From a virus (lineage: Duplodnaviria; Heunggongvirae; Uroviricota; Caudoviricetes), in IMG/VR virus record IMGVR_UViG_2609459790_000004: DNA of 30,774 bases. One strand, 5' to 3'. A model generated the notes under the pieces. That model did no database searches, was not told the DNA's origin, and was given only the letters and a program-made list of their open reading frames with translations. Positions 2,491-29,584 of the stretch are shown in pieces. Within the stretch, counting starts at the first letter, position 1. Every line of letters starts with the position of its first letter. Both the position numbers and the translations under genes were made by a program.

Positions 2491-2703
2491 ATGACCAGAC
2501 GTGATCAATATAGCTTCATTTTGCATGTTCTTTTACCTGCTATCGAAAATGAAGGCTTAACCATTAAAACCCGCCGTGATGGTGAGTTAACCCTTTCTGC
2601 CACTGGATCAGTAACCACAAATTTTATCAGCACCCTGCGCCAGCACTGCATTGAAGAATTGCAGCGCCCTTCTATTCCAGCTTCCCATTACGGAGTCCTG
2701 TAA
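2491..2703 (+). CDS. hypothetical early protein (70 aa)
   Basis: ATG 2491 preceded by GAGGAAG RBS; stop TAA 2701-2703 abuts the Dam start. Confidence 0.55.
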   Translation: MTRRDQYSFILHVLLPAIENEGLTIKTRRDGELTLSATGSVTTNFISTLRQHCIEELQRPSIPASHYGVL

Positions 2704-2704
2704 A

Positions 2705-3676
2705 ATGATCCGCCCGTTCATCAAATGGGCAGGGGGTAAAACCCGTGTCCTCCCTGACCTGCTGCCGCATCTTCCTAAAGCCGACTGCCTGATCGAACCG
2801 TTCGTAGGCGGCGCATCGGTATTTCTGGCGACTGAATACCGCCGCTATGTGCTGGCTGATATCAACCCGGATCTTATTAACCTGTATCGGGAAGTCACCC
2901 GTTACCCGGACTTAGTGATCGATGCGGCCCGCGAACTGTTCAACAGCAAGAATAGCCCGCAGGGGTACAACGAAGTCCGAGCCGCGTTCAATAAGCAGGT
3001 AGGTACGGTAAAAAGCGGTGGGTTGCGTTATGGCGTAGAAATGGCGTGCATCATGCGCGCTGCTCAATTCCTGTATCTGAATCGCCACGGTTATAACGGC
3101 TTATGCCGCTACAGTCGTAAGACCGGCTTTAACGTGCCGTTTGGCAAGTATAAGAGCGTCTACTTTCCTGAAAATGAAATCCGCCTGTTTGCAGAAAAGG
3201 CCAACAATACAAAGGCAATATTTCTTTGCGCGCCGTTCCAGCGTTCTCTACAGGTCGTCACGGGTGGCGATGTTCTCGTTTACTGCGATCCGCCTTACCT
3301 GCCTGAAGGCAAAACAGCCGATTTTACCAAATACCACACCGAACCATTCACGGAAGACAACCACCGCCAGTTAGTCCAGGCACTGCTGGAAGTTAACCGT
3401 AAGCATGGCGTGAAGGTCGTCATTTCCAACAGCGACACCGAAGCCACCCGCGCGATTTATCAGCCCTTCAAGATGCACGAAATCAGCGTGCAACGTTCCA
3501 TCAGCACCGACAAAGACAACCGCCAGAAGGCCAAAGAAGTGATCGGCGTGCTGCCTGTCTGCGACTGCTGCGGGCGTTACGGCGGCGGTTGCCCTGATTG
3601 TGGCGCCGTGATGGGTGATGCGACTTACAACGCGATGGTTGCGGCGGGCACGTCTGACGATCTGGAGGCTTTTTAA
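2705..3676 (+). CDS. dam: orphan DNA adenine (N6) methyltransferase, Dam family, with Cys-rich C-terminal tail
   Basis: FIKWAGGK, EPFVGGASVF, LYLNRHGYNGLCRY and DPPY motifs match the Dam family; preferred start ATG 2705 (RBS ACGGAG) rather than track start 2651, which overlaps the upstream ORF. Confidence 0.9.
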   Translation: MIRPFIKWAGGKTRVLPDLLPHLPKADCLIEPFVGGASVFLATEYRRYVLADINPDLINLYREVTRYPDLVIDAARELFNSKNSPQGYNEVRAAFNKQVGTVKSGGLRYGVEMACIMRAAQFLYLNRHGYNGLCRYSRKTGFNVPFGKYKSVYFPENEIRLFAEKANNTKAIFLCAPFQRSLQVVTGGDVLVYCDPPYLPEGKTADFTKYHTEPFTEDNHRQLVQALLEVNRKHGVKVVISNSDTEATRAIYQPFKMHEISVQRSISTDKDNRQKAKEVIGVLPVCDCCGRYGGGCPDCGAVMGDATYNAMVAAGTSDDLEAF

Positions 3677-3855
3677 TGAATCTTATAGACGCCTGGATCG
3701 TTGAAATCATAAGCGTGAGTCGTGGCGAGATTGCGCCGTATTGGTTGGTTGAGGCGAAAGTAACAGCTTATGGAAGGGAGTCAATAACCACAATTCTGAA
3801 GAAATCAGAAGAGGAAGCCAAAGCCGTTAAAGTAGGGGATGTAGTTCAAATATGA
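3676..3855 (+). CDS. hypothetical 59-aa protein translationally coupled between dam and A
   Basis: Hand translation MNLIDAWIVEIISVSRGEIAPYWLVEAKVTAYGRESITTILKKSEEEAKAVKVGDVVQI; start overlaps Dam stop (TAATG), stop overlaps A start (ATGA); GGAGGC RBS. Below the 60-aa cutoff of the ORF track. Confidence 0.5.
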   Translation: MNLIDAWIVEIISVSRGEIAPYWLVEAKVTAYGRESITTILKKSEEEAKAVKVGDVVQI

Positions 3856-6209
3856 CCACGGAAACCCGTGGCCGTCGCGCCCCTTCTCCACCTCCACCGT
3901 ATCCGGGTAGCACTGACAATGCTATCCCTTACGCTTATGGGGGAAACAGACCATACCAGCCTATTGGCTTTGATGTAGCGCCGGGGCTGGATGGTTTCGA
4001 CTATCTCACGCCGGACGGCACGCGTAAGCATATTGCGTTCAGTGAACTGGTAGCGGAAGACGAAAAGCCGGAGCGCAGCAAGCTGCTGCGTCGCCGTCTG
4101 GCTTCACTTCCGCAGTATATCCGCCGCCACTTTGCCGCGAAGCTGGATGCACTGGAAGCGAAAGACCGCAAAGCGGCAGATCACTGGCTGGTTAATACCT
4201 TTGAGCGCCACGTATTAACGCGAATTGATAGCGTGAACAGTGTTTACCAGCCTGACACTATGATGCCCGGCATTCTGCTGCCAATCCGCGATCAGCTGTT
4301 CCGTATGCTCTGGGCAGGGAAGAAAGAGTTAAAAAGACTGGCTTATACGCTTGCCGATATCTTTACGAGCGAGTTTATACGCGAGTCCGATCACCAATTG
4401 GCACGCACCGGAGATCCTGAGTTCGCGGCGCTTTCTGGCTATGGCCGTATTGCGTCGCTGGCGGTGCATCTGAAAACGCCGATCCCCGGCTGGAGGGCGT
4501 ATTGCAATGAAGAACTGGAAGCGGAGGACGCGTTACGCGCGGTTCTTCGCCTTGAGTCACCGCAGTGGTGGTTAAACCGCCTGCGCCGTATCCATGCCCG
4601 GTGGCGTGAGCATTTGATGATCGCAGCGGGATACGTCCAGAAAAAATCTTCCCCATACAGTAGCGCCCCGTGCCTTACGGAATGGCTGGCCCAGAAAAAG
4701 GCTAACCGTGAATACCTCAAGGCTATGGAACTGGAAGATCAGGATACGGGCGAGCGCATTTCACTGATCGATAAAGTCGCTGGCAGTGTTGCCAATCCGG
4801 CCAACCGTCGCCGCGAACTCATGACGAGAATGCGCGGATTTGAAGATCTGGCGAAGCTGGAAGGGCTGGCCGGTGACTTCTACACGCTGACAGCACCTTC
4901 CCGTTACCACTCCATGCAGCATAACGGGCGCCGCAATAATAAATACTGTGGCGCGTCGCCGCGCGAGACGCAGCAATATCTTTGCAAAGTCTGGGCAAGA
5001 ACCCGCGCAGCGTGGAAGAGAAAAGGGATCCGCGTCTTTGGTTTCCGAGTGGTCGAACCGCACCACGATGCAACGCCACACTGGCATTTACTTCTTTTTA
5101 TGCGCCCCGAATGCGTCGAACAGGCGCGCGAAATCTTCCGTAAATATGCCCTGAAAGAAGACGGCAACGAACCGGGAGCGCAGGAAAACCGCTTTCAGGT
5201 TGTGCCGATCGACGATGCCCACGGCAGCGCAACCGGCTACATAGCGAAATACATTTCGAAGAATATCGACGGCTTCGCGCTGGATGGTGAGAAGGACGAC
5301 GAAACCGGGGAAGACCTGAAAGAAATGTCACTCCGCGTTAGCGCGTGGGCATCGCGCTGGGCTATTCGCCAGTTTCAGCAGATCGGCGGTGCGCCGGTCA
5401 CGGTATATCGGGAACTTCGCCGCCTGGGCGATCGCGAACTGGTGTTACACCCTGAACTGGAAACCGCCCGGCAGGCCGCTAACGGTGGCGAATGGGATAA
5501 CTACGTATTAGCCCAGGGTGGCCCGTTGGTTGAGCGCGATAAGCTGCGCATCCGTCTGAACTATGAAACCACTGAAAACGGTAACGCCTACGGCGATAAC
5601 GTCCAGCGAATCACTGGTATTTACTGCCCGATTACGGGCAATGACTCTTTGATCTTCACCCGCACCACTCAATACAAAATCGTGCCGAAGCGCCAGAGCG
5701 CTGACGGTGTGGCCGTTGACGTTGGTTTTTCAGGCGGCAACGCCGCCCCTCGGAGTTCTGTCAATAACTGTACGCGGGATCCCGCGACAGGTGCAGACGG
5801 TCTTGAACATGCCGATCACGAAGTGGGCGAGACGGTGAATTTTGATGCGCTTTCACGGCAGGAAAAGCGAGAACTGGCGCAGCGGCTTAGTGACGATGTG
5901 CGAAGTAAGCGTAAAAAACAGCCATCGGAACGGGAAGAGAGGGCCGGGCTATCCGTGAAAGAGCAGCAGATCAGTGAACTGCTGGCGCTGCGTGGGATTG
6001 ATGCCAGCGCCGGAATAGTCAGATCGATGATGGCTGGTGCGTCAGTGGCGTGCGGCGATCTTGTTATGACCGTACAAAATGGGCGGCTGGTATCGCGCAA
6101 CCGTGCAGCGTCGGGGCTGGATAAGCTGCCGTCGCAGGTAATGGCTGCGAAGAAAAAGACCAGTGACCTCGTGAACAGGATGAAGGCTGCGTTTTCGGGA
6201 CGGAAGTAG
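3852..6209 (+). CDS. A: rolling-circle replication initiation endonuclease (P2 gpA-like)
   Basis: 785-aa ORF with HWH..L and YIAKYISK motifs typical of P2 A-family initiators; position after the early operon. Confidence 0.9.
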   Translation: MTTETRGRRAPSPPPPYPGSTDNAIPYAYGGNRPYQPIGFDVAPGLDGFDYLTPDGTRKHIAFSELVAEDEKPERSKLLRRRLASLPQYIRRHFAAKLDALEAKDRKAADHWLVNTFERHVLTRIDSVNSVYQPDTMMPGILLPIRDQLFRMLWAGKKELKRLAYTLADIFTSEFIRESDHQLARTGDPEFAALSGYGRIASLAVHLKTPIPGWRAYCNEELEAEDALRAVLRLESPQWWLNRLRRIHARWREHLMIAAGYVQKKSSPYSSAPCLTEWLAQKKANREYLKAMELEDQDTGERISLIDKVAGSVANPANRRRELMTRMRGFEDLAKLEGLAGDFYTLTAPSRYHSMQHNGRRNNKYCGASPRETQQYLCKVWARTRAAWKRKGIRVFGFRVVEPHHDATPHWHLLLFMRPECVEQAREIFRKYALKEDGNEPGAQENRFQVVPIDDAHGSATGYIAKYISKNIDGFALDGEKDDETGEDLKEMSLRVSAWASRWAIRQFQQIGGAPVTVYRELRRLGDRELVLHPELETARQAANGGEWDNYVLAQGGPLVERDKLRIRLNYETTENGNAYGDNVQRITGIYCPITGNDSLIFTRTTQYKIVPKRQSADGVAVDVGFSGGNAAPRSSVNNCTRDPATGADGLEHADHEVGETVNFDALSRQEKRELAQRLSDDVRSKRKKQPSEREERAGLSVKEQQISELLALRGIDASAGIVRSMMAGASVACGDLVMTVQNGRLVSRNRAASGLDKLPSQVMAAKKKTSDLVNRMKAAFSGRK

Positions 6210-17933: not shown

Positions 17934-18540
17934 TGACCTGTTACCACCCAGCGCCAGCCGAATGGAGCGCGTCGCCGCGCGCGTCTGTGCGTCGTTGGGT
18001 GAAGTGCCCGTGCCGCTGCGCCAGTTGTGGAACCCGTGGACGTGTCGGGCTGATCTGTTGCCCTATCTGGCGTGGGCCTTCTCCGTTGATCGCTGGGATG
18101 AGGCCTGGCCGATAAACACAAAACGAAAGGCGGTGGCCGATGCGTTTTACCTGCATAAGTACAAGGGTACAACGGGCGCCATGCGCCGGGTTGTGGAGCC
18201 GTTCGGCTTCTTCATCCGGGTTAACGAGTGGTGGAACATCGACACCGCACCGGGCACCTTCACGCTGGATATTGGCGTGGAAGACCAGGGCATTAGTGAA
18301 GAAACCTATCAGGAACTTGAACGCCTGATCGCCGATGTGAAGCCGTGCAGCCGTCATATGCTGGGAATGTCTCTTCACCTGCAAACAACCGGCGATCTGT
18401 ATATCGGCGCGGGCAGTTATTCCGGCGATACGCTAACCGTGTACCCGTATTTTCCTGAAACCATAGCCGTGGGCGGTGATGATTACACCGGGGCGGCAAT
18501 CCATTTAATTGACACCGTGGAGATCGCAAGTGGCGACTAA
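17926..18540 (+). CDS. I: baseplate protein I (P2 gpI-like)
   Basis: ATG 17926 (GGTGG RBS) overlapping J stop; track start 17917 is GTG. Confidence 0.85.
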   Translation: MSNDLLPPSASRMERVAARVCASLGEVPVPLRQLWNPWTCRADLLPYLAWAFSVDRWDEAWPINTKRKAVADAFYLHKYKGTTGAMRRVVEPFGFFIRVNEWWNIDTAPGTFTLDIGVEDQGISEETYQELERLIADVKPCSRHMLGMSLHLQTTGDLYIGAGSYSGDTLTVYPYFPETIAVGGDDYTGAAIHLIDTVEIASGD

Positions 18541-20023
18541 ATATTATGCCGTGCTAACCAATGTGGGCGCGGCGAAACTGGCAAATGCCACGGCATTGGG
18601 TGCGCAGGTTGAAATCACCCAGATGGCTGTAGGCGATGGTAACGGCGTGTTGCCGACGCCGAACCCGGCACAAACGGCGCTGGTTCATGAGCTGCGCCGC
18701 AAGCCGCTTAATAGTCTGAGCATTGACCCGAATAACGCCAACCAGATTATTGCCGAGCAGGTGATACCTGAAGACGAGGGCGGGTGGTGGATCCGTGAAA
18801 TCGGTTTATTCGATAAAGACGGCGATATGATTGCCGTAGCCAACTGTGCGGAAACGTATAAGCCGCAGTTACAGGAGGGAAGCGGGCGCGTACAGGTTGT
18901 ACGCATGATCCTGATTGTCAGCAGCACCGCTGCCGTAACGCTGAAAATTGACCCTTCGGTAGTTCTGGCAACCCGACAGTATGTTGATGATCAGATCATC
19001 CAGGTGAAAAGCTATGTTGATCAGAAAATGGCAGCGCATGTAGCTGCGGCTGATCCGCATAAACAATACGCACCAAAAGAAAGTCCCGCTCTTACTGGCA
19101 GGCCGACTGCGCCAACGGCGGAAGGCAAAGATAGTTCTACTCAAATTGCAAATACAGCTTTCGTTCAGGCTGCTATTGCTGCTTTGGTTGGCTCTTCGCC
19201 TGAAGCGCTGGATACGCTGAATGAACTTGCTGCGGCTTTGGGTAATGATCCTAACTTTGCTACCACCGTAACAAATTCACTCGCTGGAAAGATGGATAAA
19301 TCGGCAAATGGTTCAGACATAGAAAACGTTTCTGTTTTTCTACAAAACCTTGGTTTGGGAGATGCGAGCGGATACGTTGGTAGGCTGCTAAAAATACAGG
19401 TATTCACTGCCAGCGGGACAGTGACAAAAACGCCAGGCGCAAAAAAATGGCGAATTAAATGTCTCGGGGCGGGGGCCGGTAGTTCAGCTGCACCGGCAAC
19501 GGGTAGTAACGAGGTTTCCGTGAGTAACGGGGGCGGCGCAGGGGCATATGCTGAGGGCATTTATGACGTATCGTCAATAACAACGGCGTCAGTCGTCATC
19601 GGTTCCGGCGGTGCAGGAGGAACGGCGGGTTCAATATACGGCGCGGACGGCGGAACTAGCTCAGTTGGTTCGTTTATTTCATCGCCCGGTGGGAAAGCTG
19701 GATTACCCGCCGGACCGGCAACCCCACCATTTCAGCCCGTGGCCAATAGTAACAGCGATAGCTCGACTGGGTGGAATATTGTCGGCTCATCTGGAGCAGG
19801 GGCAGAACCAGCCGTAGCTGTTGCAAATAGCTATGCCGTTGGCTCGCGTGGTTCAAATAGTATATTTGGGGTAGGCGGAGCAACTCCTGCAATGAATAGC
19901 CCGGCAAATACCGGTGGTGGCTATGGTTCTGGAGCATCAGGCTGCTCGAATGGCCCATCTCAACCAACTAAATCAGGCGCAGCGGGACGCCCGGGAATCG
20001 TAATCATTGAGGAGCTGGCATAA
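18530..20023 (+). CDS. H: tail fibre protein (P2 gpH-like) with constant N-terminal part and invertible, glycine-rich variable C-terminal part (current orientation)
   Basis: N-terminus ..YYAVLTNVGAAKLANATALG..MAVGDGNG resembles P2 H; preferred start GTG 18530 (GGAG RBS 7 nt upstream), track start TTG 18509; the C-terminal ~220 aa lie inside the invertible segment. Confidence 0.85.
   Translation: MATKYYAVLTNVGAAKLANATALGAQVEITQMAVGDGNGVLPTPNPAQTALVHELRRKPLNSLSIDPNNANQIIAEQVIPEDEGGWWIREIGLFDKDGDMIAVANCAETYKPQLQEGSGRVQVVRMILIVSSTAAVTLKIDPSVVLATRQYVDDQIIQVKSYVDQKMAAHVAAADPHKQYAPKESPALTGRPTAPTAEGKDSSTQIANTAFVQAAIAALVGSSPEALDTLNELAAALGNDPNFATTVTNSLAGKMDKSANGSDIENVSVFLQNLGLGDASGYVGRLLKIQVFTASGTVTKTPGAKKWRIKCLGAGAGSSAAPATGSNEVSVSNGGGAGAYAEGIYDVSSITTASVVIGSGGAGGTAGSIYGADGGTSSVGSFISSPGGKAGLPAGPATPPFQPVANSNSDSSTGWNIVGSSGAGAEPAVAVANSYAVGSRGSNSIFGVGGATPAMNSPANTGGGYGSGASGCSNGPSQPTKSGAAGRPGIVIIEELA
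19338..19363. promoter_or_regulatory. hix/gix/cix-like 26-bp recombination site (left), inside gene H
   Basis: TTCTACAAAACC TT GGTTTGGGAGAT; 20-bp inverted repeat with the right site (19/20 identical); resembles the hixL consensus recalled from memory. Confidence 0.6.
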
Positions 20024-20220
20024 TGAGTAATTATGCGATAGTTAAAAATGGCGTCGTTGAAAATGTTGTTGTATGGGACGGGATTGGTAATATTTTCGAC
20101 AATTATATAGTGGTAAATATTGAAAATATAAATGCAGGAATAGGCTGGTTGTATGACGGAGAGGCTTTTACCCCTCCGTCTGAGCTTACGCCTACACCAC
20201 CGGGAAATCAGGCCAGTTAA
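20023..20220 (+). CDS. small hypothetical protein (65 aa) downstream of H in the expressed orientation; possible tail-fibre chaperone
   Basis: ATG overlapping H stop (TAATG); AT-rich; function inferred only from position. Confidence 0.45.
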   Translation: MSNYAIVKNGVVENVVVWDGIGNIFDNYIVVNIENINAGIGWLYDGEAFTPPSELTPTPPGNQAS

Positions 20221-20599
20221 TATCTGGCGCAGTGCTGGTATCAATTACCTGCACTGCGTCGATATAGTCCAGCACTGCGTTTAACCGCGTAGTTTCTGCA
20301 TCAGTCAGCATACGCCCTGCCAGCAATTTCATTTGCAGCACACTAATTGACTGCATTGCTGAATCTATCAGCGACTGTTTTTTCTGCTCGCCTCTCGCAA
20401 CTTCTTCTTCACGCGTCAAACCGATGGGCTCTTGCAATACCGGGTGACCATCATTTCCAGCGGAAATTATTTTTCCATTGGCCTGACCGTCAAACAGCCG
20501 GTGATATTCATCTGAGCTAATTTCTATAGCGTTATCTGGAATGTGGTTATTTAATCCGTCAATATAAAATGCACCATCTAAAAAATAATATTTCATCAT
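20192..20599 (-). CDS. tail fibre assembly protein (Tfa/gpG/Mu U-like), alternative-orientation copy
   Basis: N-terminus MMKYYFLDGAFY and C-terminus ..DAVQVIDTSTAPDINWPDFPVV match the conserved tail-fibre-assembly family ends; ATG overlaps the stop of the alternative fibre segment. Confidence 0.8.
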   Translation of the reverse strand: MMKYYFLDGAFYIDGLNNHIPDNAIEISSDEYHRLFDGQANGKIISAGNDGHPVLQEPIGLTREEEVARGEQKKQSLIDSAMQSISVLQMKLLAGRMLTDAETTRLNAVLDYIDAVQVIDTSTAPDINWPDFPVV

Positions 20600-20982
20600 T
20601 TACCCCACGCGAATACGATGCATCCTGCATTTTCTACTGCTGAAATTTGTGATCCGTTATCTACCCTGCATATTGCCTGAACGCCTGTTTTAGTGAGCGT
20701 ACTCAGTTGTATTGCCCATGTATTGGAAATTCCTGCACCCCAGGCATACGGATTACGCTCTATCACAACAGCGCCCAGGCCGAAAACATCAAAACTGGCA
20801 GGAAAAACAACGTCCGCAGCACCGCCAGAATTTGTATTCCCCAGTACCCACATGATTTTAAAACCCCCAGGGAATCGCGCCACACCGGGCATGTTTAGTG
20901 TTGATGCAAAACTGGACATATCAGGAATCTGATTTGCGCCGGTGCCGACGTTGCGGCGCGACGCTGTACCCAGATCTCCCAA
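20596..20982 (-). CDS. alternative tail-fibre C-terminal segment (silent in this orientation; fuses to H constant part after inversion)
   Basis: No ATG of its own (track start is TTG within the right hix site); after inversion at the 2-bp cores the H frame reads ..QNLGLGD-LGTASRRNVG.. continuously into this ORF. Confidence 0.7.
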   Translation of the reverse strand: MGDLGTASRRNVGTGANQIPDMSSFASTLNMPGVARFPGGFKIMWVLGNTNSGGAADVVFPASFDVFGLGAVVIERNPYAWGAGISNTWAIQLSTLTKTGVQAICRVDNGSQISAVENAGCIVFAWGK

Positions 20983-20999
20983 ACCAACGTTTTTGAAAA
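20974..20999. promoter_or_regulatory. hix/gix/cix-like 26-bp recombination site (right)
   Basis: ATCTCCCAAACC AA CGTTTTTGAAAA; inverted repeat of the left site; strong match to the hix consensus as recalled. Confidence 0.6.
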
Positions 21000-21053
21000 T
21001 GCATAATTATCAGTCAAATGGCATGATTTCTCATTTTAACGGAATGAAAAACC

Positions 21054-21635
21054 ATGCTTATTGGATATGTACGCGTATCAACAAATGACCAGAACACGGC
21101 TTTGCAACGTGATGCGCTGGAGCGGTCAGGATGTGAGCTTATTTTTGAAGATAAAATGAGCGGTAAAACAGCAGAAAGACCGGGGCTTAAAAAATTACTA
21201 AAGCGCCTTTCTCCAGAAGATACGCTTGTTGTCTGGAAGCTGGATCGTCTTGGGCGGAGTATGCGGAACTTGGTCATTCTGGTGGAGGAACTAAAGCAAC
21301 GTTCCGTGAACTTCCGCAGCCTGACTGACAGTATTGATACCTCAACACCAATGGGGCGTTTCTTTTTTCATGTTATGGGAGCACTGGCAGAGATGGAGAG
21401 AGAATTGATTGTCGAGCGTACGCGTGCAGGACTGGTGGCCGCTCGCGCGCAGGGAAGGATCGGCGGTAGACGTCCAAAACTAACACCAGAACAATGGGCG
21501 CAGGCGGGTAGGTTAATAGCGGCAGGGGAATCGCGCCGGAGGGTTGCCATAATTTATGATGTTGGGATATCTACGCTTTACAAAAAATTCCCAGCGACCA
21601 GAGATAAGAATTCCGGCACGCATGGCCGGTTATAA
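21054..21635 (+). CDS. serine recombinase, Hin/Gin/Cin/Pin-family DNA invertase
   Basis: 193-aa ORF; GYVRVSTNDQ (catalytic Ser region), TLVVWKLDRLGRS, MGRFFFHVMGALAEMERELIVERT and C-terminal HTH are near-identical in pattern to Hin/Gin. Confidence 0.95.
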   Translation: MLIGYVRVSTNDQNTALQRDALERSGCELIFEDKMSGKTAERPGLKKLLKRLSPEDTLVVWKLDRLGRSMRNLVILVEELKQRSVNFRSLTDSIDTSTPMGRFFFHVMGALAEMERELIVERTRAGLVAARAQGRIGGRRPKLTPEQWAQAGRLIAAGESRRRVAIIYDVGISTLYKKFPATRDKNSGTHGRL

Positions 21636-21741: not shown

Positions 21742-22191
21742 TTATATCGAAAGGTTGGTTTTCACCAGAGAGAAGAGATCGTCGGTGGTGGTTTCAGCCA
21801 GCTTTTCCCGTATGTCCTCGCTTACCCGTTTCAGGTTGAGCGTGAAATCAATTTTCTTTGCCTTCCCGTCCTTAAAAAACTCCGTCCGGTTTTGCGTGAT
21901 CTGCTCAATTACATACATGCCGTAGATCCTGCCCGTGCCTTCTATCAGGGGCCACGGGCGCCCGGAAAAAGCCATAGTTTCCAGCATGACAAGCGACACA
22001 TCACCGCCGCTTATTTCGGGGTACAGCGTGCCGCTGAGTACGAACGGTTCTTCATCTGCGCCGATGAACTGATAGCGCGGGGATTTCCCCACGCGATCGT
22101 TTTTGACGTGCCGCCAGGAGTTGGTTTTATTCGCACTCTGGTAAGGTGTGGTTTGCAGTGAAAAGGGGAACATCCCCAGAATCATCATCAT
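21742..22191 (-). CDS. U: tail protein U (P2 gpU-like)
   Basis: 149-aa ORF immediately downstream of the tape-measure gene on the minus strand; position and size as P2 U. Confidence 0.8.
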   Translation of the reverse strand: MMMILGMFPFSLQTTPYQSANKTNSWRHVKNDRVGKSPRYQFIGADEEPFVLSGTLYPEISGGDVSLVMLETMAFSGRPWPLIEGTGRIYGMYVIEQITQNRTEFFKDGKAKKIDFTLNLKRVSEDIREKLAETTTDDLFSLVKTNLSI

Positions 22192-22200
22192 GATATTGCC

Positions 22201-25146
22201 TTAGACGTGATCGGTCAGTTGGGAGCGCTTGCGCCGGTCGGCCTGTTGCTTCGCTAACGCAAGTTCTTCGCGCACGCGCCTGATAATGGTTTCTTCATCC
22301 AGTTTCTGGCCGCTAAAGTCGAAGTTAAGGTTATATACATCGCCACCCGGAGCAGGCATCAGCGCAGCGACGGAAGCCGCAGACGGAGACGCAGAAACAG
22401 GCATCCGTGCGGCGGGCTTCTCAACCTGCCAAGGCGTAACGGAAGCGATCAGCGATCCGGCCTGCTGCGTCACCCAATCGGTAAGGGATGGTAGCTGGCG
22501 CTGCGCCTGCTTAAGCGGTTCCGAATATCCGCCACGGATCGGGATATAGGGCTGCTTATTCTTGAAGACAATTTCGCCGGGGCCGTCTTTCTTCTCCGTG
22601 GTATTGGTGGCGATCTTGTCCAGGCTGTTGCTCATCTTCGGCACGATGTTGGCCGGGCCTTTGAGCGAGTTAATTAAGCTTTCCTGCTTTTTCTGCTGGT
22701 CAATGGCCTGCTGTTGCTTCTGGTTGGTTTTCTTCTGCTGATCGTCTTTCGGCGACCAGTTCCAACCCTTTTTAACCATTTTCTTTTGCTGCGGATCCCA
22801 CTCCCAGACAACAGGGTCTTTGTGCATACTTTCCGCAGCTTGCTGCGCTGCTTTTGTTGCGTCGGGGATGGCGCCGAGTTTCTCAAGTATCCATCCAATC
22901 CCGTTAGCGACGGCTTGAATAGGTAGCGTCAGCGCGCTGATTGCGGCCCCTACAACCTTGCCGAACGTTTCCCCGGCACTGGTGCAGGATGCCAGCGCTT
23001 CACTGGAAAACTGGATCGGTTCCAGCAGTTTGGTAAACCATTCCCAGACCCCACTGATCGCGTTGCCGATACTGTCAAAAATCGGGGCCAGTGGTGCAAA
23101 TACGGCGTTAAATGCCTGCGTGATTGGTTGAAGGCCAGTCATCAGGCCGGTAAAGAAGCCGCTGAAAAACGCCTGTATGGGTTGCCAGAATTTAATGACG
23201 GCCACTGCTGCCGCAGCAAAGAGCGCAATCAGCCCCCAGACGGGCGCAGAAATACCAGCCAGTAGAGTAATAAGCGGGCCGAATACCATGCGACCGGCGC
23301 TTAATAATGCCTGCATAGGCGAGCCAGCAAGCCACTGGAACGCACCACCCAGGCGCATTACTCCGCCAGTCAGCCGCGCTATTCCTCCTTCCCCGGCCAG
23401 CGTGGTGAAGCTGAGGCGAACAAGTGCCATCGGGCCCAGCACTGCGCCGATGGACAGCATCAGGCCACCCACGACAACCAGCAACGCGCCTATGGCTGCG
23501 GTGACTTTCATGATTGAACCAACCAGCGCCGGGTTTGCCTCAACCCAACGCCGGACGCTGCCAACCACCTTACTGACGGTAAGCATGATATCCATCAGCG
23601 GTTCGCGGAGCGTTTCCCCTGCTGAACTGAATGCGTTAACCGCGCCGGTTTTGGTCAGTTGCCACTGAGCAGAAAGGGAGTCTTTATTGATATCGGATTC
23701 CCGATTCATGGAACCTTTAGCGGCAGCACCCTGCGTCAGTTCGATCTGGCGCCGAAGTTCGGGCAGGTTGTTCGCAAGTTTCTGTGCATCATCCCCGAAC
23801 TCTTTACCGAAAATCTGGGTAAGGTTGGCTACCTGCTTATCTGGTGCAAGTTTTTTGGACGCTTCCAGCACTGAAATGATCGTGCCCATCGCGTCCACTG
23901 ACATGCTTTTCTGGACTTTCTCAGCATTGACGCCGATCTCATCCAGAGCACCCAAAAATTTATCGCTTTGTACTGTGGCGATCGACAGTTCACGCACCAT
24001 TGCATTGGTGGCGCTGGCTGCAACTTCGGCAGGTGATCCAAGCGTCAGAAAGGTGGAGCCCAGCGCGGCGGCTTGCTTGTAATCCAGTTGGCTGGCAAGC
24101 CCGCCAACGCGCTGGAGCACGTCGATAATATCGGAGCCTTTCGACTTCGCGTTATCGTCCAGGTAGTTTATGGCGTCGCCCAACTGTTCAATATTCTGGG
24201 TAGGGATTTTATACAGCCCGGCAATCTTACCGAGACTTTCAGAAAGCTGATCGGCGGGCAGTTCAAAGGCTACCGAAGCCTTTGCCGCCATGCTGGCAAA
24301 AGCCAGCAGATCGGCTTTTTGCTTTTGCCACGGATCATTGCTGTTTGCGACGCCCATACGCGCGCCACCTTCGACCAGTGCGGCATAGTCAACAGCACCG
24401 TTTGCCATTGGCAGCTTTTCGCTGGCATCCATGATCGCCCGCTGCATTTCTTCATATTGCGGGGTGCGGTTGCCGCTGTCGTCACGCAAGCCGTTTACCT
24501 GTTTGGCTACGCCCTTCATTGCGTCTTCAAGGCTGCTGTAGGATTTAACCGCAGCGGCGACAGGTGCTAGGGTTGCCGCCCCTACTGCGGCGGTTTTCAT
24601 CCCCCCGCTCATCATCTTTTCGCCGGTTTCTTTGGCGCGGCTGTAACGGGCCTGCGCCTGGTTAACAGCGTCAAGCCGTCGCTGCTGTTCGGCAAGCTGG
24701 CGGTTGTATTGCGCGGTGCGCTGGTTGATCTGTTCCGTCGCCCGGCTGGCGCTGCTGATCGCAATGCCTTCGCTGTAGAAGCTGGCCCGCAACTGGTTAA
24801 GCTGTGTCTGCTCGCCTTTCTGCTGCTGGGTTAACTGGCGAATGGCTGCACGTTGCTGATTGAGGGCGGCAACCTGTTCGGCGCTGCGCTGGCGTAACGG
24901 GCCATAGGCCGCCGCCATTTGCCGGGCCTGTTCTTTCGCCTGGGCCAGTTGTTCGGTGGTTTTTTTATTGGCTGCGGTGAGGCGGTCAAAGCTGGTTGCC
25001 TGACGCTCAAGCCCTTTAATGCTGGTTTTAGTCTGGTTGATTTGAGACGCCAACGCGGCGGCACTCTGGCGCGCCGCGTTGACAGGGCGGGACATATTAT
25101 TCAGGGCGCTGAATGCCACCCTGATATTTAAATTGCGGTCTGCCAT
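22201..25146 (-). CDS. T: tail tape measure protein (P2 gpT-like)
   Basis: 981-aa ORF with long Ala/Gln-rich coiled-coil and hydrophobic segments typical of tape-measure proteins. Confidence 0.9.
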   Translation of the reverse strand: MADRNLNIRVAFSALNNMSRPVNAARQSAAALASQINQTKTSIKGLERQATSFDRLTAANKKTTEQLAQAKEQARQMAAAYGPLRQRSAEQVAALNQQRAAIRQLTQQQKGEQTQLNQLRASFYSEGIAISSASRATEQINQRTAQYNRQLAEQQRRLDAVNQAQARYSRAKETGEKMMSGGMKTAAVGAATLAPVAAAVKSYSSLEDAMKGVAKQVNGLRDDSGNRTPQYEEMQRAIMDASEKLPMANGAVDYAALVEGGARMGVANSNDPWQKQKADLLAFASMAAKASVAFELPADQLSESLGKIAGLYKIPTQNIEQLGDAINYLDDNAKSKGSDIIDVLQRVGGLASQLDYKQAAALGSTFLTLGSPAEVAASATNAMVRELSIATVQSDKFLGALDEIGVNAEKVQKSMSVDAMGTIISVLEASKKLAPDKQVANLTQIFGKEFGDDAQKLANNLPELRRQIELTQGAAAKGSMNRESDINKDSLSAQWQLTKTGAVNAFSSAGETLREPLMDIMLTVSKVVGSVRRWVEANPALVGSIMKVTAAIGALLVVVGGLMLSIGAVLGPMALVRLSFTTLAGEGGIARLTGGVMRLGGAFQWLAGSPMQALLSAGRMVFGPLITLLAGISAPVWGLIALFAAAAVAVIKFWQPIQAFFSGFFTGLMTGLQPITQAFNAVFAPLAPIFDSIGNAISGVWEWFTKLLEPIQFSSEALASCTSAGETFGKVVGAAISALTLPIQAVANGIGWILEKLGAIPDATKAAQQAAESMHKDPVVWEWDPQQKKMVKKGWNWSPKDDQQKKTNQKQQQAIDQQKKQESLINSLKGPANIVPKMSNSLDKIATNTTEKKDGPGEIVFKNKQPYIPIRGGYSEPLKQAQRQLPSLTDWVTQQAGSLIASVTPWQVEKPAARMPVSASPSAASVAALMPAPGGDVYNLNFDFSGQKLDEETIIRRVREELALAKQQADRRKRSQLTDHV

Positions 25147-25607
25147 TTAGTGATCTCCACCACTGCGCGCAGCCGCCTGATCACGCCATAACAGTATTTC
25201 CTGTACCGTCATGGCGTCCATCTCTACCGGCCGCCAGTGGAATATGACGGCGATATCTGCCATCAGGTCTTCTATGCGTTCGCAGGGGCATCGGATGATT
25301 CGTTGCCCGTATCCGTCGCGGTCAGATCCGAAGAGGGTTGCAAAAAATCAACCACCGCGTTGGCTAGCTGGCAAAAATCCCAGGTATCCATACGGGCAAT
25401 CTCATCGGCGGTTAGTGCCGGAGCGGTAACGCGGGGCAGCAGAATAACCAGCGCGTCATAGTTGGAAGTCAGCACGTCATAGGCTTTTAAGCCGCGCAGT
25501 GATCCAGCCTGTTTAAGCACGGAAGTGATCGCCACTTCGGTGATTTTGGTCTTACCGCGCGTAATAGGGGCGGTAAGAATAACGGTGTTTTCTTTGGTCT
25601 TGCTCAT
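25147..25607 (-). CDS. E+E' -1 programmed-frameshift product (tail assembly chaperone long form)
   Basis: Slippery site T TTT TTG at 25347..25341 (minus strand); hand translation of the -1 frame gives a 64-codon open extension ending at TAA 25149-25147 that overlaps the T start codon, as in P2 E/E'. Confidence 0.6.
25272..25607 (-). CDS. E: tail assembly chaperone E (P2 gpE-like)
   Basis: 111-aa ORF between FII and T; contains slippery heptamer TTTTTTG near its 3' end. Confidence 0.75.
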   Translation of the reverse strand: MSKTKENTVILTAPITRGKTKITEVAITSVLKQAGSLRGLKAYDVLTSNYDALVILLPRVTAPALTADEIARMDTWDFCQLANAVVDFLQPSSDLTATDTGNESSDAPANA

Positions 25608-25621
25608 GGTGCCGGGTTTCC

Positions 25622-26137
25622 TTATAGGCCGATGTTAGCGCGGTGTTTTTCCAGCACATCCACACCGGCAACTTTGTAGATCATGTTGAGCACATCAACT
25701 TCGATAATCTCTTCGCCGTTGATGGTCAGCTTGTAATAGGTGTTTTTCAGGGTGTACTTATGCGAAGTGTCATCCCCGACTTTTGCCGAACCGGGATCCA
25801 GTTCAGTGAAGCGGCCACGCGTCTGGATTTCGCACGGTACAGCGTCGCCGGTTGCGTCGTCCTGATAGGAGCCAGCAAAACGTGTTTGCATCCCGTCCGC
25901 AGTGGTAACGCCCCATTTTTTCAGCAATCCGGCATCCAGACCGCCAAGCGTGATATCCATATCCAGGGCGCCAGCGTCGAAGCCAAGATCCACCGCAACC
26001 GAACCCGGCATACCACCCGCCTGGTAGTCTTCGGTTTTTTTTGTGAGTTTGGCGGGGGGGATTTCCGGCACCATGCCGAAGTAGTTATCCCCGTCAAAGA
26101 ACATATTGAAATATTTGAGTTTCTTAGGCAGTGCCAT
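25622..26137 (-). CDS. FII: tail tube protein (P2 gpFII-like)
   Basis: 171-aa ORF following the sheath gene; order and size as P2 FII. Confidence 0.9.
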   Translation of the reverse strand: MALPKKLKYFNMFFDGDNYFGMVPEIPPAKLTKKTEDYQAGGMPGSVAVDLGFDAGALDMDITLGGLDAGLLKKWGVTTADGMQTRFAGSYQDDATGDAVPCEIQTRGRFTELDPGSAKVGDDTSHKYTLKNTYYKLTINGEEIIEVDVLNMIYKVAGVDVLEKHRANIGL

Positions 26138-26149
26138 AAGCGCCCCCGG

Positions 26150-27343
26150 TTAGTTATTCACTGCGCTGGAAAACGTAGCGAAATATTCGTCGGTGAACTC
26201 CTGTACCAGGCTGAGATTTTCCAGCGGTGGAACAGGGGTGTAGTTGTACTTAATGGTCAGTTGACCATTGCGCAGGGTTTCCGAGGTATTCGGTTCCGGG
26301 TCATACCAGCAGCTGGCGCCCAGCAGCTTGCCAGCCGTCACATATGAGGTCAGCTTCTTATTGATGCCGTCCACAATGTCCTTAACCAGCGACGGGGTAA
26401 GCGGTTTATCAACATAGGCGAAATGGGCTTCGGCGACGGTATCCGCAACGATCTGCGCGGTTCGGGTATAGCTTTCGAAGATATACGTTTCCGCGTCGCA
26501 GGTACGCGATCCCCAGATGCGGTAGCCGTCCTGCTTGATCAGCGTGGTAACGCCTGCTGCGTTCAGTTCGTCGGCGTCGGTATCGGTGCCCTGCAACGTG
26601 AAATAGATATCCCGATCCATCCCCAGCACGTTATTAACGGGCACGTTGGAAATGGTTTTATGCCAGCCCTGCGTTGCGTCGATTTTGGCTCGCATCCCAA
26701 CAGCATGGGCACCCACGGGCACGGTGGCATTAGCCCCGGCGTTGGTGTCGTAGCAGATGAAATTAGGCCAGATAACCATCATTTCACGCTGGGAGAATTG
26801 CTCGCGGTATTCCTTCACTTCGGCGATTGTGTTGCAACCGTTCGCTGCCACGTAAGCAAACGCGCGCAGCTTTTCGGCAATGACGCCGAGTTGTGCGGCT
26901 ACCGCTTCCGTATCAAGCCCTGGAACAGCCAGTACACGCGGGCGCACACCTACGCGCATTTCGGCAGACAGCAGCGCGTACATGCCGGTAAAGCGCCCGT
27001 TTGCATCGGTGCCGCCAATAACCAGTTGATCCTGGGTCTGTGCGGTGCCGCCTTCTGGCGGTTCGATATTTGCAGCATCAGCAACGCGGATCACAATGGT
27101 TTGCGGGCTGGTCTGGTCTGAAATCGCTTTCAGGGTGGTAAACAGGGTGCCGGTTTTACCTGCCTTGCCCAGCATGTTAGCCACGCGGGTAATCAGTACA
27201 GGGGTATCCAGCGGGAACGCTGTTTCGTCCGCATCATCAGCGGTGCAGACAACGCCGATCACCGCCGAATCAATGTCGGTGATCATCGTGCTAAGGTCGG
27301 TGGTTTCCGTGACGGTTACACCGTGATGGTAGTTAGTGGCCAT
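26150..27343 (-). CDS. FI: tail sheath protein (P2 gpFI-like)
   Basis: 397-aa ORF; N-terminus MATNYHHGVTVTE resembles P2 FI (..YHHGV..); GAGG RBS. Confidence 0.9.
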   Translation of the reverse strand: MATNYHHGVTVTETTDLSTMITDIDSAVIGVVCTADDADETAFPLDTPVLITRVANMLGKAGKTGTLFTTLKAISDQTSPQTIVIRVADAANIEPPEGGTAQTQDQLVIGGTDANGRFTGMYALLSAEMRVGVRPRVLAVPGLDTEAVAAQLGVIAEKLRAFAYVAANGCNTIAEVKEYREQFSQREMMVIWPNFICYDTNAGANATVPVGAHAVGMRAKIDATQGWHKTISNVPVNNVLGMDRDIYFTLQGTDTDADELNAAGVTTLIKQDGYRIWGSRTCDAETYIFESYTRTAQIVADTVAEAHFAYVDKPLTPSLVKDIVDGINKKLTSYVTAGKLLGASCWYDPEPNTSETLRNGQLTIKYNYTPVPPLENLSLVQEFTDEYFATFSSAVNN

Positions 27344-28936: not shown

Positions 28937-29584
28937 TTATTTCATGTTTATGGCTACAAACCTTGATCGTGTAAGGTTTTCACTTAAATATTGATCGCCA
29001 CTATCCCCGGCCTTTTTGCCCCAGATATCACACGAAGATTCACCGCCCTGAAAAACGTAGCCTTTGGTTAAAATGTCGTTAGTCACATAAATATGATCGA
29101 ATAAACCAGCCTTCCAAGCCCTGTTAGATTCCCCGTGATTGAAATAGCTGATGCATACGGACTGAACGGCACTTTTCGCCTGTAGTTCTTCTATGCTGTC
29201 AAAATTGAATGCAACTACTAAGGCTTTGTTGTAAATGACTGGTTTAACTGTGAGATTCAGATCTCCGAGCGCCTTGGATAAGGCAAGGGGAAGTTGATTA
29301 GTCGCTTCTGAAAAGTCGATAGTGGTTGTTAATTGTTCTTTGGGTTTAGCCGCGGGTTGTGTTTGTTCTGTGTTTGTCACTGCTGGCTGGGGTTTATTTT
29401 CAGCAACAGCTTTCGGCGCGACTGGTGCAACCATTGAACCTATGATTGCTGCCAAGAGGCACACCCCGAAGTAGATAGCAGATGAGCGCTTTCGATTTGG
29501 CATAAAAACCCATTTGGGATTGATTAGCCCAACCCAAAAAGCGATCCCAGCAACAGCGGCGATAACGGTGATGATTGTTTCCAT
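28937..29584 (-). CDS. hypothetical membrane protein (two N-terminal TM helices, Pro/Gln-rich linker, ~150-aa C-terminal domain with two Cys); prophage-end cargo
   Basis: 215-aa ORF, ATG 29584 with GGAGGG RBS; AT-rich relative to surrounding phage genes; no recognisable family. Confidence 0.6.
   Translation of the reverse strand: METIITVIAAVAGIAFWVGLINPKWVFMPNRKRSSAIYFGVCLLAAIIGSMVAPVAPKAVAENKPQPAVTNTEQTQPAAKPKEQLTTTIDFSEATNQLPLALSKALGDLNLTVKPVIYNKALVVAFNFDSIEELQAKSAVQSVCISYFNHGESNRAWKAGLFDHIYVTNDILTKGYVFQGGESSCDIWGKKAGDSGDQYLSENLTRSRFVAINMK

Follow-up and report, generated by a model that had tools for sequence, protein, structure and literature searches.

An invertible tail-fibre segment with a probable mini-chaperone in a P2-like Escherichia coli prophage

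The tail-fibre gene H of a P2-like Escherichia coli prophage, held in a stretch of viral DNA of 30,774 bases (IMG/VR record IMGVR_UViG_2609459790_000004, analysed over its whole length and called the window from here on), ends in what is, with high confidence, a two-state switch driven by an adjacent serine invertase. Between two short inverted sites, one of them inside H, lies a segment that holds two alternative C-terminal tips for the fibre, and both orientations of this segment exist in this prophage type. A preliminary description, made from the letters of the sequence alone, had read the region as an invertible segment built like Mu G and P1 C. The architecture that it outlined was found to be correct: a constant fibre part is followed by one tip and its chaperone, which face a second chaperone and its tip on the opposite strand, and the invertase gene comes last. 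The features concerned are as follows.

18530..19349, plus strand: constant N-terminal part of H (Hc), a tail-collar fibre N-domain (Pfam PF12571, E 3e-65), ending FLQNLGLG(D)
19338..19363, plus strand: left site (pixL-like), TTCTACAAAACC-TT-GGTTTGGGAGAT, inside H, core TT at 19350-19351
19352..20023, plus strand: tip 1, Gly-rich, about 220 amino acids (aa), currently ON (Pfam PF21722 Gly_rich_2, E 4.6e-7, above the cut-off; phrog_863/6202, tail fibre)
20023..20220, plus strand: orf65, 65 aa, directly after tip 1, a probable minimal tail-fibre chaperone
20192..20599, minus strand: Tfa', the two-domain assembly protein for tip 2, currently OFF (Pfam Caudo_TAP, E 3e-22; phrog_188, E 6e-43)
20596..20985, minus strand: tip 2, gp53-like, about 125 aa, currently OFF (Pfam Gp53-like_C, E 1e-4, just below the cut-off; phrog_1396/4209, tail fibre)
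20974..20999, plus strand: right site (pixR-like), ATCTCCCAAACC-AA-CGTTTTTGAAAA, core AA at 20986-20987
21054..21635, plus strand: serine invertase, 193 aa (Pfam Resolvase, E 7e-50, and HTH_7; phrog_125, DNA invertase)

Evidence for inversion comes from relatives in which the segment lies the other way round. The exact Tfa protein occurs in 106 blocks of public assemblies, and two of ten loci compared (L022, in GCA_021853725.1, and L024) are of the same prophage type with the segment in opposite orientation, whereas the window, L028 and L029 share one orientation. In both L022 and L024 an H of 403 aa is followed by the identical Tfa on the same strand, with orf65 on the opposite strand, and the 403-aa gene call of L022 ends in the C-terminus predicted for tip 2. 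Aligned with a window that was inverted in silico, L022 is collinear over 8 kb at 99.54% identity; aligned with the real window it matches in three pieces only, the middle one reversed, and L024 behaves likewise. The junctions are reciprocal, the H-side half-site TTCTACAAAACC leading into tip 2 and the invertase-side half-site TTTTCAAAAACG into tip 1. It was the exact Tfa protein that led to the flipped form; when viral contigs were scanned for the tip 2 junction as an exact pattern, there was no match.

Complete E. coli genomes, in which Hc and the invertase recur at 99-100% identity around differing cassettes, contribute two pairs of closely related prophages. Both between 0H23 and 0H26 and between 2020N21-246 and its derivative 2020N21-246-1, the sole difference over 6.4 kb is one exact inversion, and the permissible breakpoints in both pairs are confined to TTGGTTTGGG, core TT included. 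Hc is 100% identical in the prophages of 0H23 and 0H26, which bear other cassettes; the outer half-site of the right site is identical to that of the window in both pairs, and apart from K38R their invertase is the same as that of the window. In another P2-like lineage, the Gly-rich cassette is ON in four loci (L007, L008, L011 and L012) and OFF, next to the invertase, in L010. That the segment inverts, as had been proposed, is thus borne out by the opposite orientation in L022 and L024 and by the exact inversions in the two pairs.

Differences in orientation may also arise in other ways, namely by RecA-dependent recombination between short inverted repeats or by the choice of an assembler. 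Inverted repeats of 20-26 bp can mislead short-read assemblers, and the orientation evidence consists of assemblies. Here, however, two independent strain pairs, taken from complete genomes, have their breakpoints at the very crossover core of canonical invertase sites, the junctions are perfectly reciprocal and a dedicated invertase is adjacent. In addition, the repeat length at which RecA becomes efficient is far above 20 bp, and an origin of this kind is hardly credible. At related loci, inversion has been observed at the level of reads, since read mapping showed inverting tail-fibre loci in P2-like prophages of enteropathogenic E. coli (EPEC) and in e14 (PMC4272514).

The reading frames agree with a switch between two fibres. 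In-silico inversion of 19350-20987, that is, at the cores, keeps H in frame and joins it to the minus-strand tip 2, so that the first 285 codons of H are common to both orientations and are continued by the ~220-aa Gly-rich part in the present one or by the ~125-aa gp53-like part in the flipped one. The start of H is most likely the GTG at 18530, which has a GGAG 7 nt upstream and which agrees with the annotation of relatives and with the 403-aa gene call in L022; counted from there, H has 497 aa at present and 403 aa when flipped. The open reading frame (ORF) of tip 2 is listed at 20596-20982 on the minus strand, has no start of its own and is readable only after inversion. In the preliminary description this alternative C-terminus had 122 aa: the in-frame fusion has stood up to the in-silico inversion and to L022, and the length is to be corrected to about 125 aa. 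The ORF list and Pfam PF21722 support its account of H as carrying a ~220-aa Gly-rich C-terminus followed by a 65-aa ORF, and the protein that it took for a canonical Tfa at 20192..20599 on the minus strand is one by its matches to Caudo_TAP and phrog_188.

The two pairs of tip and chaperone are convergent, and each tip is followed by its own chaperone (tip 2 by the Caudo_TAP Tfa, tip 1 by the chaperone-like orf65). H and orf65 overlap at TAATG, tip 2 and Tfa overlap at ATGA, and each tip is translationally coupled to the next gene. A consensus promoter scan found none inside the segment beyond chance level, and the cassettes in the OFF position would be silent and promoterless.

The two 26-bp inverted sites, at 19338-19363 and 20974-20999, and the 1.64-kb segment that they bound had been pointed out before and are retained here, the segment measuring 1,638 bp. 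An inverted-repeat search returned arms at 19344-19363 and 20974-20993 (20 nt, 95% complementary), and a 20-mer search of the 30,774-base window with up to 3 mismatches gave the two sites only (0 in 100 shuffles), as did the generic crossover core AAACCWWGGTTT with up to 1 mismatch; the sites are unique in the window. Read as its reverse complement, the right site is TTTTCAAAAACG-TT-GGTTTGGGAGAT and identical to the left site at 22 of 26 bases, and the dyad symmetry is 9/12 in the left site and 7/12 in the right one. The left site encodes the linker peptide FLQNLGLGD of H. For comparison, reference sites were taken directly from the records of K-12 e14, Mu and P1. The best alignment was obtained with the pix sites of e14, which match the window at 22/26 (pixL) and 24/26 (pixR) and have the TT/AA cores in common, while gix (Mu) and cix (P1) match at 18/26 at most. 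The motif CATAAT occurs 3 bp past the right site and was not used as promoter evidence.

The invertase gene starts 54 bp beyond the right site, and its assignment to the Hin family, already made in the preliminary description, is upheld by the Pfam matches (Resolvase and HTH_7) and by a match to the PDB structure of Gin, 3uj3 (E 1.7e-85 over residues 1-183). The protein is full length, with the catalytic Ser9, the YVRVSTNDQ motif, a C-terminal helix-turn-helix and all family-invariant columns kept. Its identity is highest to Pin of e14 (83%), followed by Cin of P1 (78%) and Gin of Mu (70%). The earlier label 'Hin/Gin-type' therefore holds for the family and needs refinement in detail, as the nearest counterparts of the invertase and of both sites are Pin and pix of e14.

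A putative recombinational enhancer may be placed in the 5' end of this gene:

21072..21143, no strand assigned: putative recombinational (Fis) enhancer, invertase gene nt 19-90, positional homologue of the P1 cin enhancer

In the P1 record the Cin enhancer is placed at cin nt 19-90; over the homologous stretch, identity between P1 and the window's gene is 81%, versus 65% for the rest of the gene. Among 5 invertase genes, synonymous-codon identity is 0.60 in codons 7-30 versus 0.36-0.46 elsewhere. Fis-like 15-mers, with G as first and C as last base and 4-5 of the 7 central bases A/T, are found at nt 22-36 and 71-85 of the gene. Such a pattern is only suggestive of a conserved Fis enhancer, and inversion would then depend on Fis.

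Taken together, these observations suggest the following mechanism. The Pin-type invertase would bind the two pix-like sites, cut at the central TT/AA dinucleotides and turn the 1,638-bp segment round by subunit rotation; this would probably happen in a Fis-bound enhancer complex within the 5' end of the invertase gene. The segment is read from the late operon V-W-J-I-H, and because of this only the cassette joined to Hc would be expressed. In the present orientation this would be H with the Gly-rich tip, followed by the 65-aa mini-chaperone, and in the flipped orientation H with the gp53-like tip, followed by the canonical Tfa. A population of lysogens would in this way yield two kinds of virion that differ in the receptor-binding tip, and the two orientations would give different host ranges.

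Several points weigh against this two-state switch. Switching within one culture of this host is deduced from assemblies and not from reads of a single culture, and recognition of different receptors by the two tips is likewise a deduction. Residue 38 of the invertase, K in the window, is R in each of the five close relatives that were compared; Cin also has K here, and Gin and Pin have T. A consensus scan of the plus strand returned no sigma-70 promoter for the invertase. The Fis-like 15-mers, finally, are weak consensus matches in a stretch that also codes for the catalytic motif.

Some of these points would fit a frozen relic, in which the architecture of the switch is kept and this particular copy inverts no longer, for example because of K38, because the invertase is not expressed any more or because the enhancer has been lost; differences in orientation at other loci would then stem from relatives whose switch still works. 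Of six near-identical invertases, only that of the window has K38, the invertase has no called promoter, and copies of the segment with no adjacent invertase exist (L025 and L027). Yet the invertase ORF is full length with its invariant residues kept, and both sites and both cassettes are intact and in frame. Furthermore, Pin-family invertases of other prophages can work in trans on pix sites, as PinQ does on the e14 P segment (PMC12529663). Since residue 38 varies in the family, as in Cin with K and in Gin and Pin with T, an effect of K38 is unlikely, and the window's copy would be expected to catalyse inversion. A relic is accordingly given a small probability, and an active two-state switch remains the preferred reading.

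A different question is whom the switch would serve. In e14, inversion of the P segment creates StfE2, which blocks adsorption of T2, and the flipping is done by PinQ (PMC12529663); by analogy, the tip proteins of the window could be cell-associated and protect the host from other phages. Pix and Pin are the closest relatives of the window's sites and invertase, and Gly-rich tips of the gp38 type bind porins, according to PMC9608196 and to the abstracts of further papers. The prophage looks complete, however, and a close relative occurs as a separate 32-kb record; the cassettes stand at the end of the late tail operon and have no promoter of their own, so their expression is expected in lytic growth and not in the lysogen. 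A benefit to the host is therefore less likely for an intact prophage with its tips in the late operon, and this reading has a slim chance at best next to that of a switch which serves the phage.

The cassettes of the segment also appear to travel. More than 600 homologues of tip 1 were found, the best 120 of which, at 91-97% identity, are fused to N-termini of many lengths; their hosts are E. coli, Klebsiella, Citrobacter, Enterobacter and Shigella. At the DNA level, the junction of tip 1 in the compared loci is always ...TT|GGTTTGGGAGAT, and at least 10 different fibre-side half-sites are joined to it, including those of a P1-like 97-kb plasmid and of a Mu/e14-like element at dusA. Six loci with unrelated myovirus backbones (L020, L021, L023 and L025-L027) contain the whole 1.64-kb segment, both cassettes included, at 97-99% identity; otherwise these backbones are ~75% identical to the window or have nothing in common with it. 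Tip 2 and Tfa have one relative only among 5,426 complete E. coli genomes, in ET846 (80% DNA identity), where it is expressed as the C-terminus of H. The whole segment may be a portable host-range module, swapped among P2-like, Mu-like, P1-like and other myoviruses at the crossover dinucleotide; if so, swapping would proceed by invertase-mediated exchange between elements and not by homologous recombination.

Two of these copies, in other P2-like prophages (L025 and L027), comprise the complete segment at 98% identity with no invertase gene called next to it, and they are either frozen or dependent on an invertase in trans. A further copy stands in a Mu-like prophage (L026 3600-3640, GCA_031505805.1), where the tip 2 and Tfa cassette lies beside a third cassette (251 aa plus a 134-aa Tfa) and a hybrid site, ATCTCCCAAACC-AA-GGTTTGTGAGAT, separates the two, an arrangement that suggests a multi-cassette shufflon of the Min (p15B) type. 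It may be asked whether the window, too, is a multi-site shufflon of this type, with more than two states. The third cassette and hybrid site in L026 speak for it, as does a P2-like prophage of EPEC with a three-repeat, four-variant locus (PMC4272514). Against it, only two crossover-consensus sites occur in the whole 30.8-kb window, and searches of the same window gave none inside 19364-20973. More than two states are thus very improbable for the window, which is better described by the two-state switch.

An AlphaFold2 (AF2) model of tip 1, computed from 27 near-identical sequences, is unusable (mean predicted local distance difference test score, pLDDT, 35.9). From PF21722 and the literature one may guess at a TNF-like fold or a polyglycine II (PGII) lattice, as in Pam3 gp24 or S16 gp38. 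PDB sequence searches with tip 1, tip 2, orf65 and an orf65 profile returned nothing meaningful, NCBIfam has no family for any fibre or chaperone part, and a search of the literature on PF21722 found no papers. A match of orf65 to 4mkm was set aside as a match to a repeat protein with weak per-domain scores.

The small gene behind tip 1 deserves separate treatment. That orf65 is a real gene is indicated by a ratio of nonsynonymous to synonymous divergence (dN/dS) of 0.2 at dS 0.7 between alleles. Compared with the alleles in P1-like and Mu-like elements, orf65 is only 78-80% identical, whereas tip 1 is 95-97% identical with dS 0.06-0.08 and a relatively high dN/dS (0.47-0.62). The difference between dS 0.06-0.08 in tip 1 and 0.7 in orf65 therefore places a mosaic joint at the tip 1/orf65 boundary (window 20021-20025).

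In cyanophage Pam3, the chaperone of a Gly-rich fibre binds the tip through its first 55 aa (PMC9608196), which led to the prediction that orf65 is such a domain alone; later tests agreed. The AF2 model of orf65 has pLDDT 81.6, a good value in the best of five models only. Its top Foldseek match is 7ypx_a (probability 0.96, TM 0.59, E 0.38, 2.4 Å over 55 columns), with the aligned residues of 7ypx_a not specified, and all other matches have probabilities of 0.11 or less. A further line of evidence is provided by L009 (IMGVR_UViG_3300011612_000025, 2530-4388), a non-invertible locus in which a 484-aa fibre with a homologous Gly-rich tip is followed by a 134-aa Tfa. Over its first 55 aa this 134-aa protein is similar to orf65 (32% identity, E 1e-4). 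The last 73 aa form a Caudo_TAP domain that is 42% identical to the C-terminus of the window's Tfa, and the end of orf65 coincides with the start of the C-domain in this full-length homologue. Judged by this alignment, the Tfa of L009 would show the ancestral, untruncated form of the chaperone.

Searches of Pfam, NCBIfam and PDB sequences gave no match of orf65 to Tfa, and the conserved C-terminal domain that defines PF02413 is absent from it. As it falls outside the Pfam definition of Caudo_TAP, the family of lambda Tfa/gpK and Mu U, orf65 was not filed as a member. What it does have is the variable N-terminal fibre-binding domain and a position immediately downstream of the tip, as judged from fold, synteny and similarity to the Tfa N-domain. 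Therefore, orf65 is probably a Tfa reduced to its fibre-binding N-domain, and a minimal chaperone for tip 1. The two pairs of fibre and chaperone, correctly called very unequal in the preliminary description, would differ in size because orf65, by this reading, is a Tfa cut down to this domain. The conserved C-terminal domain of Tfa is thought to drive fibre oligomerisation; if the mini-chaperone reading is true, Gly-rich tips would fold with the shielding domain alone. A broader proposal combines two claims, namely that orf65 and its relatives of 59-68 aa (phrog_14370, annotated as 'unknown function') form a widespread class of minimal chaperones and that the whole segment is a portable module. 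In this combined form the proposal is tentative, its chances lying a little short of even.

The surroundings of the switch are those of a P2-like (Senquatrovirus-like) E. coli prophage, apparently intact, which runs from the integrase at the start of the window to gpD and an annotated homologue of ogr. The P2-like nature, named at the outset in the preliminary description, agrees with Pfam matches to gpU, gpD (GPD) and integrase among the window's proteins and with E. coli prophage relatives at 97% identity, in whose annotation P2-family capsid, portal, terminase, replication endonuclease, tail protein I and ogr appear. The structural and regulatory gene set is of the P2 type, which comprises Q P O N M L, V W J I H, FI FII E T U D, ogr and int. 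The prophage has an integrase gene, genes for replication, head and tail, a lysis region and ogr. Relatives at 96-98% identity are prophages in about 24 complete genome records (23 genomes). The right end of the prophage is adjoined by fieF, a gene found in 5,426 of 5,426 complete E. coli genomes, in most of them at 99% identity or more; the host is taken to be E. coli because this right-flank gene occurs throughout the complete genomes of the species.

Beyond the invertase, the tail genes continue with gpU:

21742-22191, minus strand: gpU (Pfam)

The tail genes U, T, E, FII and FI (window 21742-27343) lie on the minus strand, opposite to the P2 order, with D and ogr on the plus strand. A second, larger inversion of this FI-U block by the same invertase was considered and rejected: hix-like sites or inverted repeats are missing at its ends, and its order is fixed, all E. 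coli relatives and also Salmonella phage SEN5 (genus Senquatrovirus) having the block on the minus strand. By its gene order, the inverted block appears to be a fixed trait of the lineage and not a second switch. SEN5 has no invertase and carries a gene for a macro-domain protein between H and its Tfa (L018 4550-5374).

Other observations on the prophage may be useful for its annotation. E. coli 2020N21-246-1 has, besides the chromosomal copy, a separate record of 32,330 bp (NZ_JBQJRQ010000002.1) that covers 89% of window 1-25000 at 97% identity. This may be an excised circular phage genome, in which case the prophage type would be inducible. An ORF of 215 aa (window 28937-29584, minus strand) stands between ogr and fieF, at the prophage end where cargo is often carried in P2-like phages; it is 'hypothetical' in relatives and had no Pfam or PADLOC match. 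In the early region, a Dam-like N6-adenine DNA methyltransferase of the D12 class (window 2651-3676, plus strand) matches the PADLOC orphan methyltransferase model (E 3e-96).

Switches of this type are already known (Mu G, P1 C and e14 P) and have been reported in P2-like prophages. The switch itself is textbook material, and the chief value of its description is correct annotation: in this prophage family, H is usually annotated as a single gene and the OFF tip as 'partial' or 'hypothetical'. Modestly new are the assignment of a mini-chaperone and the documentation of the segment as a portable module joined at the crossover core. Such a segment (i) offers two receptor-binding modules ready for exchange, with a defined 26-bp junction and at least 10 fibre shafts, (ii) would be useful for the host-range engineering of P2-, P1- and Mu-type phages and of tailocins and (iii) through orf65, if this is an N-domain-only chaperone, would give a function to a common 'hypothetical' gene and a simple test of the need for the Tfa C-domain.

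The closest known system is the e14 P segment of E. coli K-12 with its invertase Pin, which shares with the window the closest invertase (83% at the amino acid level), the closest sites, the TT/AA cores and the layout, that is, a constant fibre part, two convergent pairs of tip and Tfa, and the invertase. Inversion of e14 has been shown in culture (PMC4272514). Unlike the window, which holds a complete P2-like prophage, e14 is defective and retains a Mu/T4-like remnant of a baseplate, and it has other cassettes, with two canonical Tfa genes and no Gly-rich tip. The G segment of Mu with Gin and the C segment of P1 with Cin are alike in mechanism class and in gene logic (Sc / Sv U > < U' Sv' / invertase); in P1 an enhancer is annotated in the 5' part of the invertase gene, where the window has its putative one. 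They differ in the length of their segments, 3-4.2 kb versus 1.64 kb in the window, in their more distant sites (18/26, with a TC/GA core in Mu) and in their tips and chaperones, which are unrelated to tip 1 and orf65.

Within the same phage family, the P2-like prophage loci of EPEC E2348/69 (Goldberg et al. 2014, PMC4272514) resemble the window in their position at the end of H and in providing alternative C-termini for one fibre, and the coexistence of variants was demonstrated there experimentally. The cassette pair of the window is not described among them, and one of the loci has three repeats and four variants, whereas the window has two sites and two states. For the Gly-rich tip and its small partner, the comparison is with cyanophage Pam3, in which the fibre gp24 combines a TNF-like and a Gly-rich domain and has gp25 as its chaperone (PDB 7YPX; PMC9608196). 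Comparison of gp24 and gp25 with the window detected no sequence similarity, and gp25, unlike orf65, possesses a C-terminal helical trimerisation domain.

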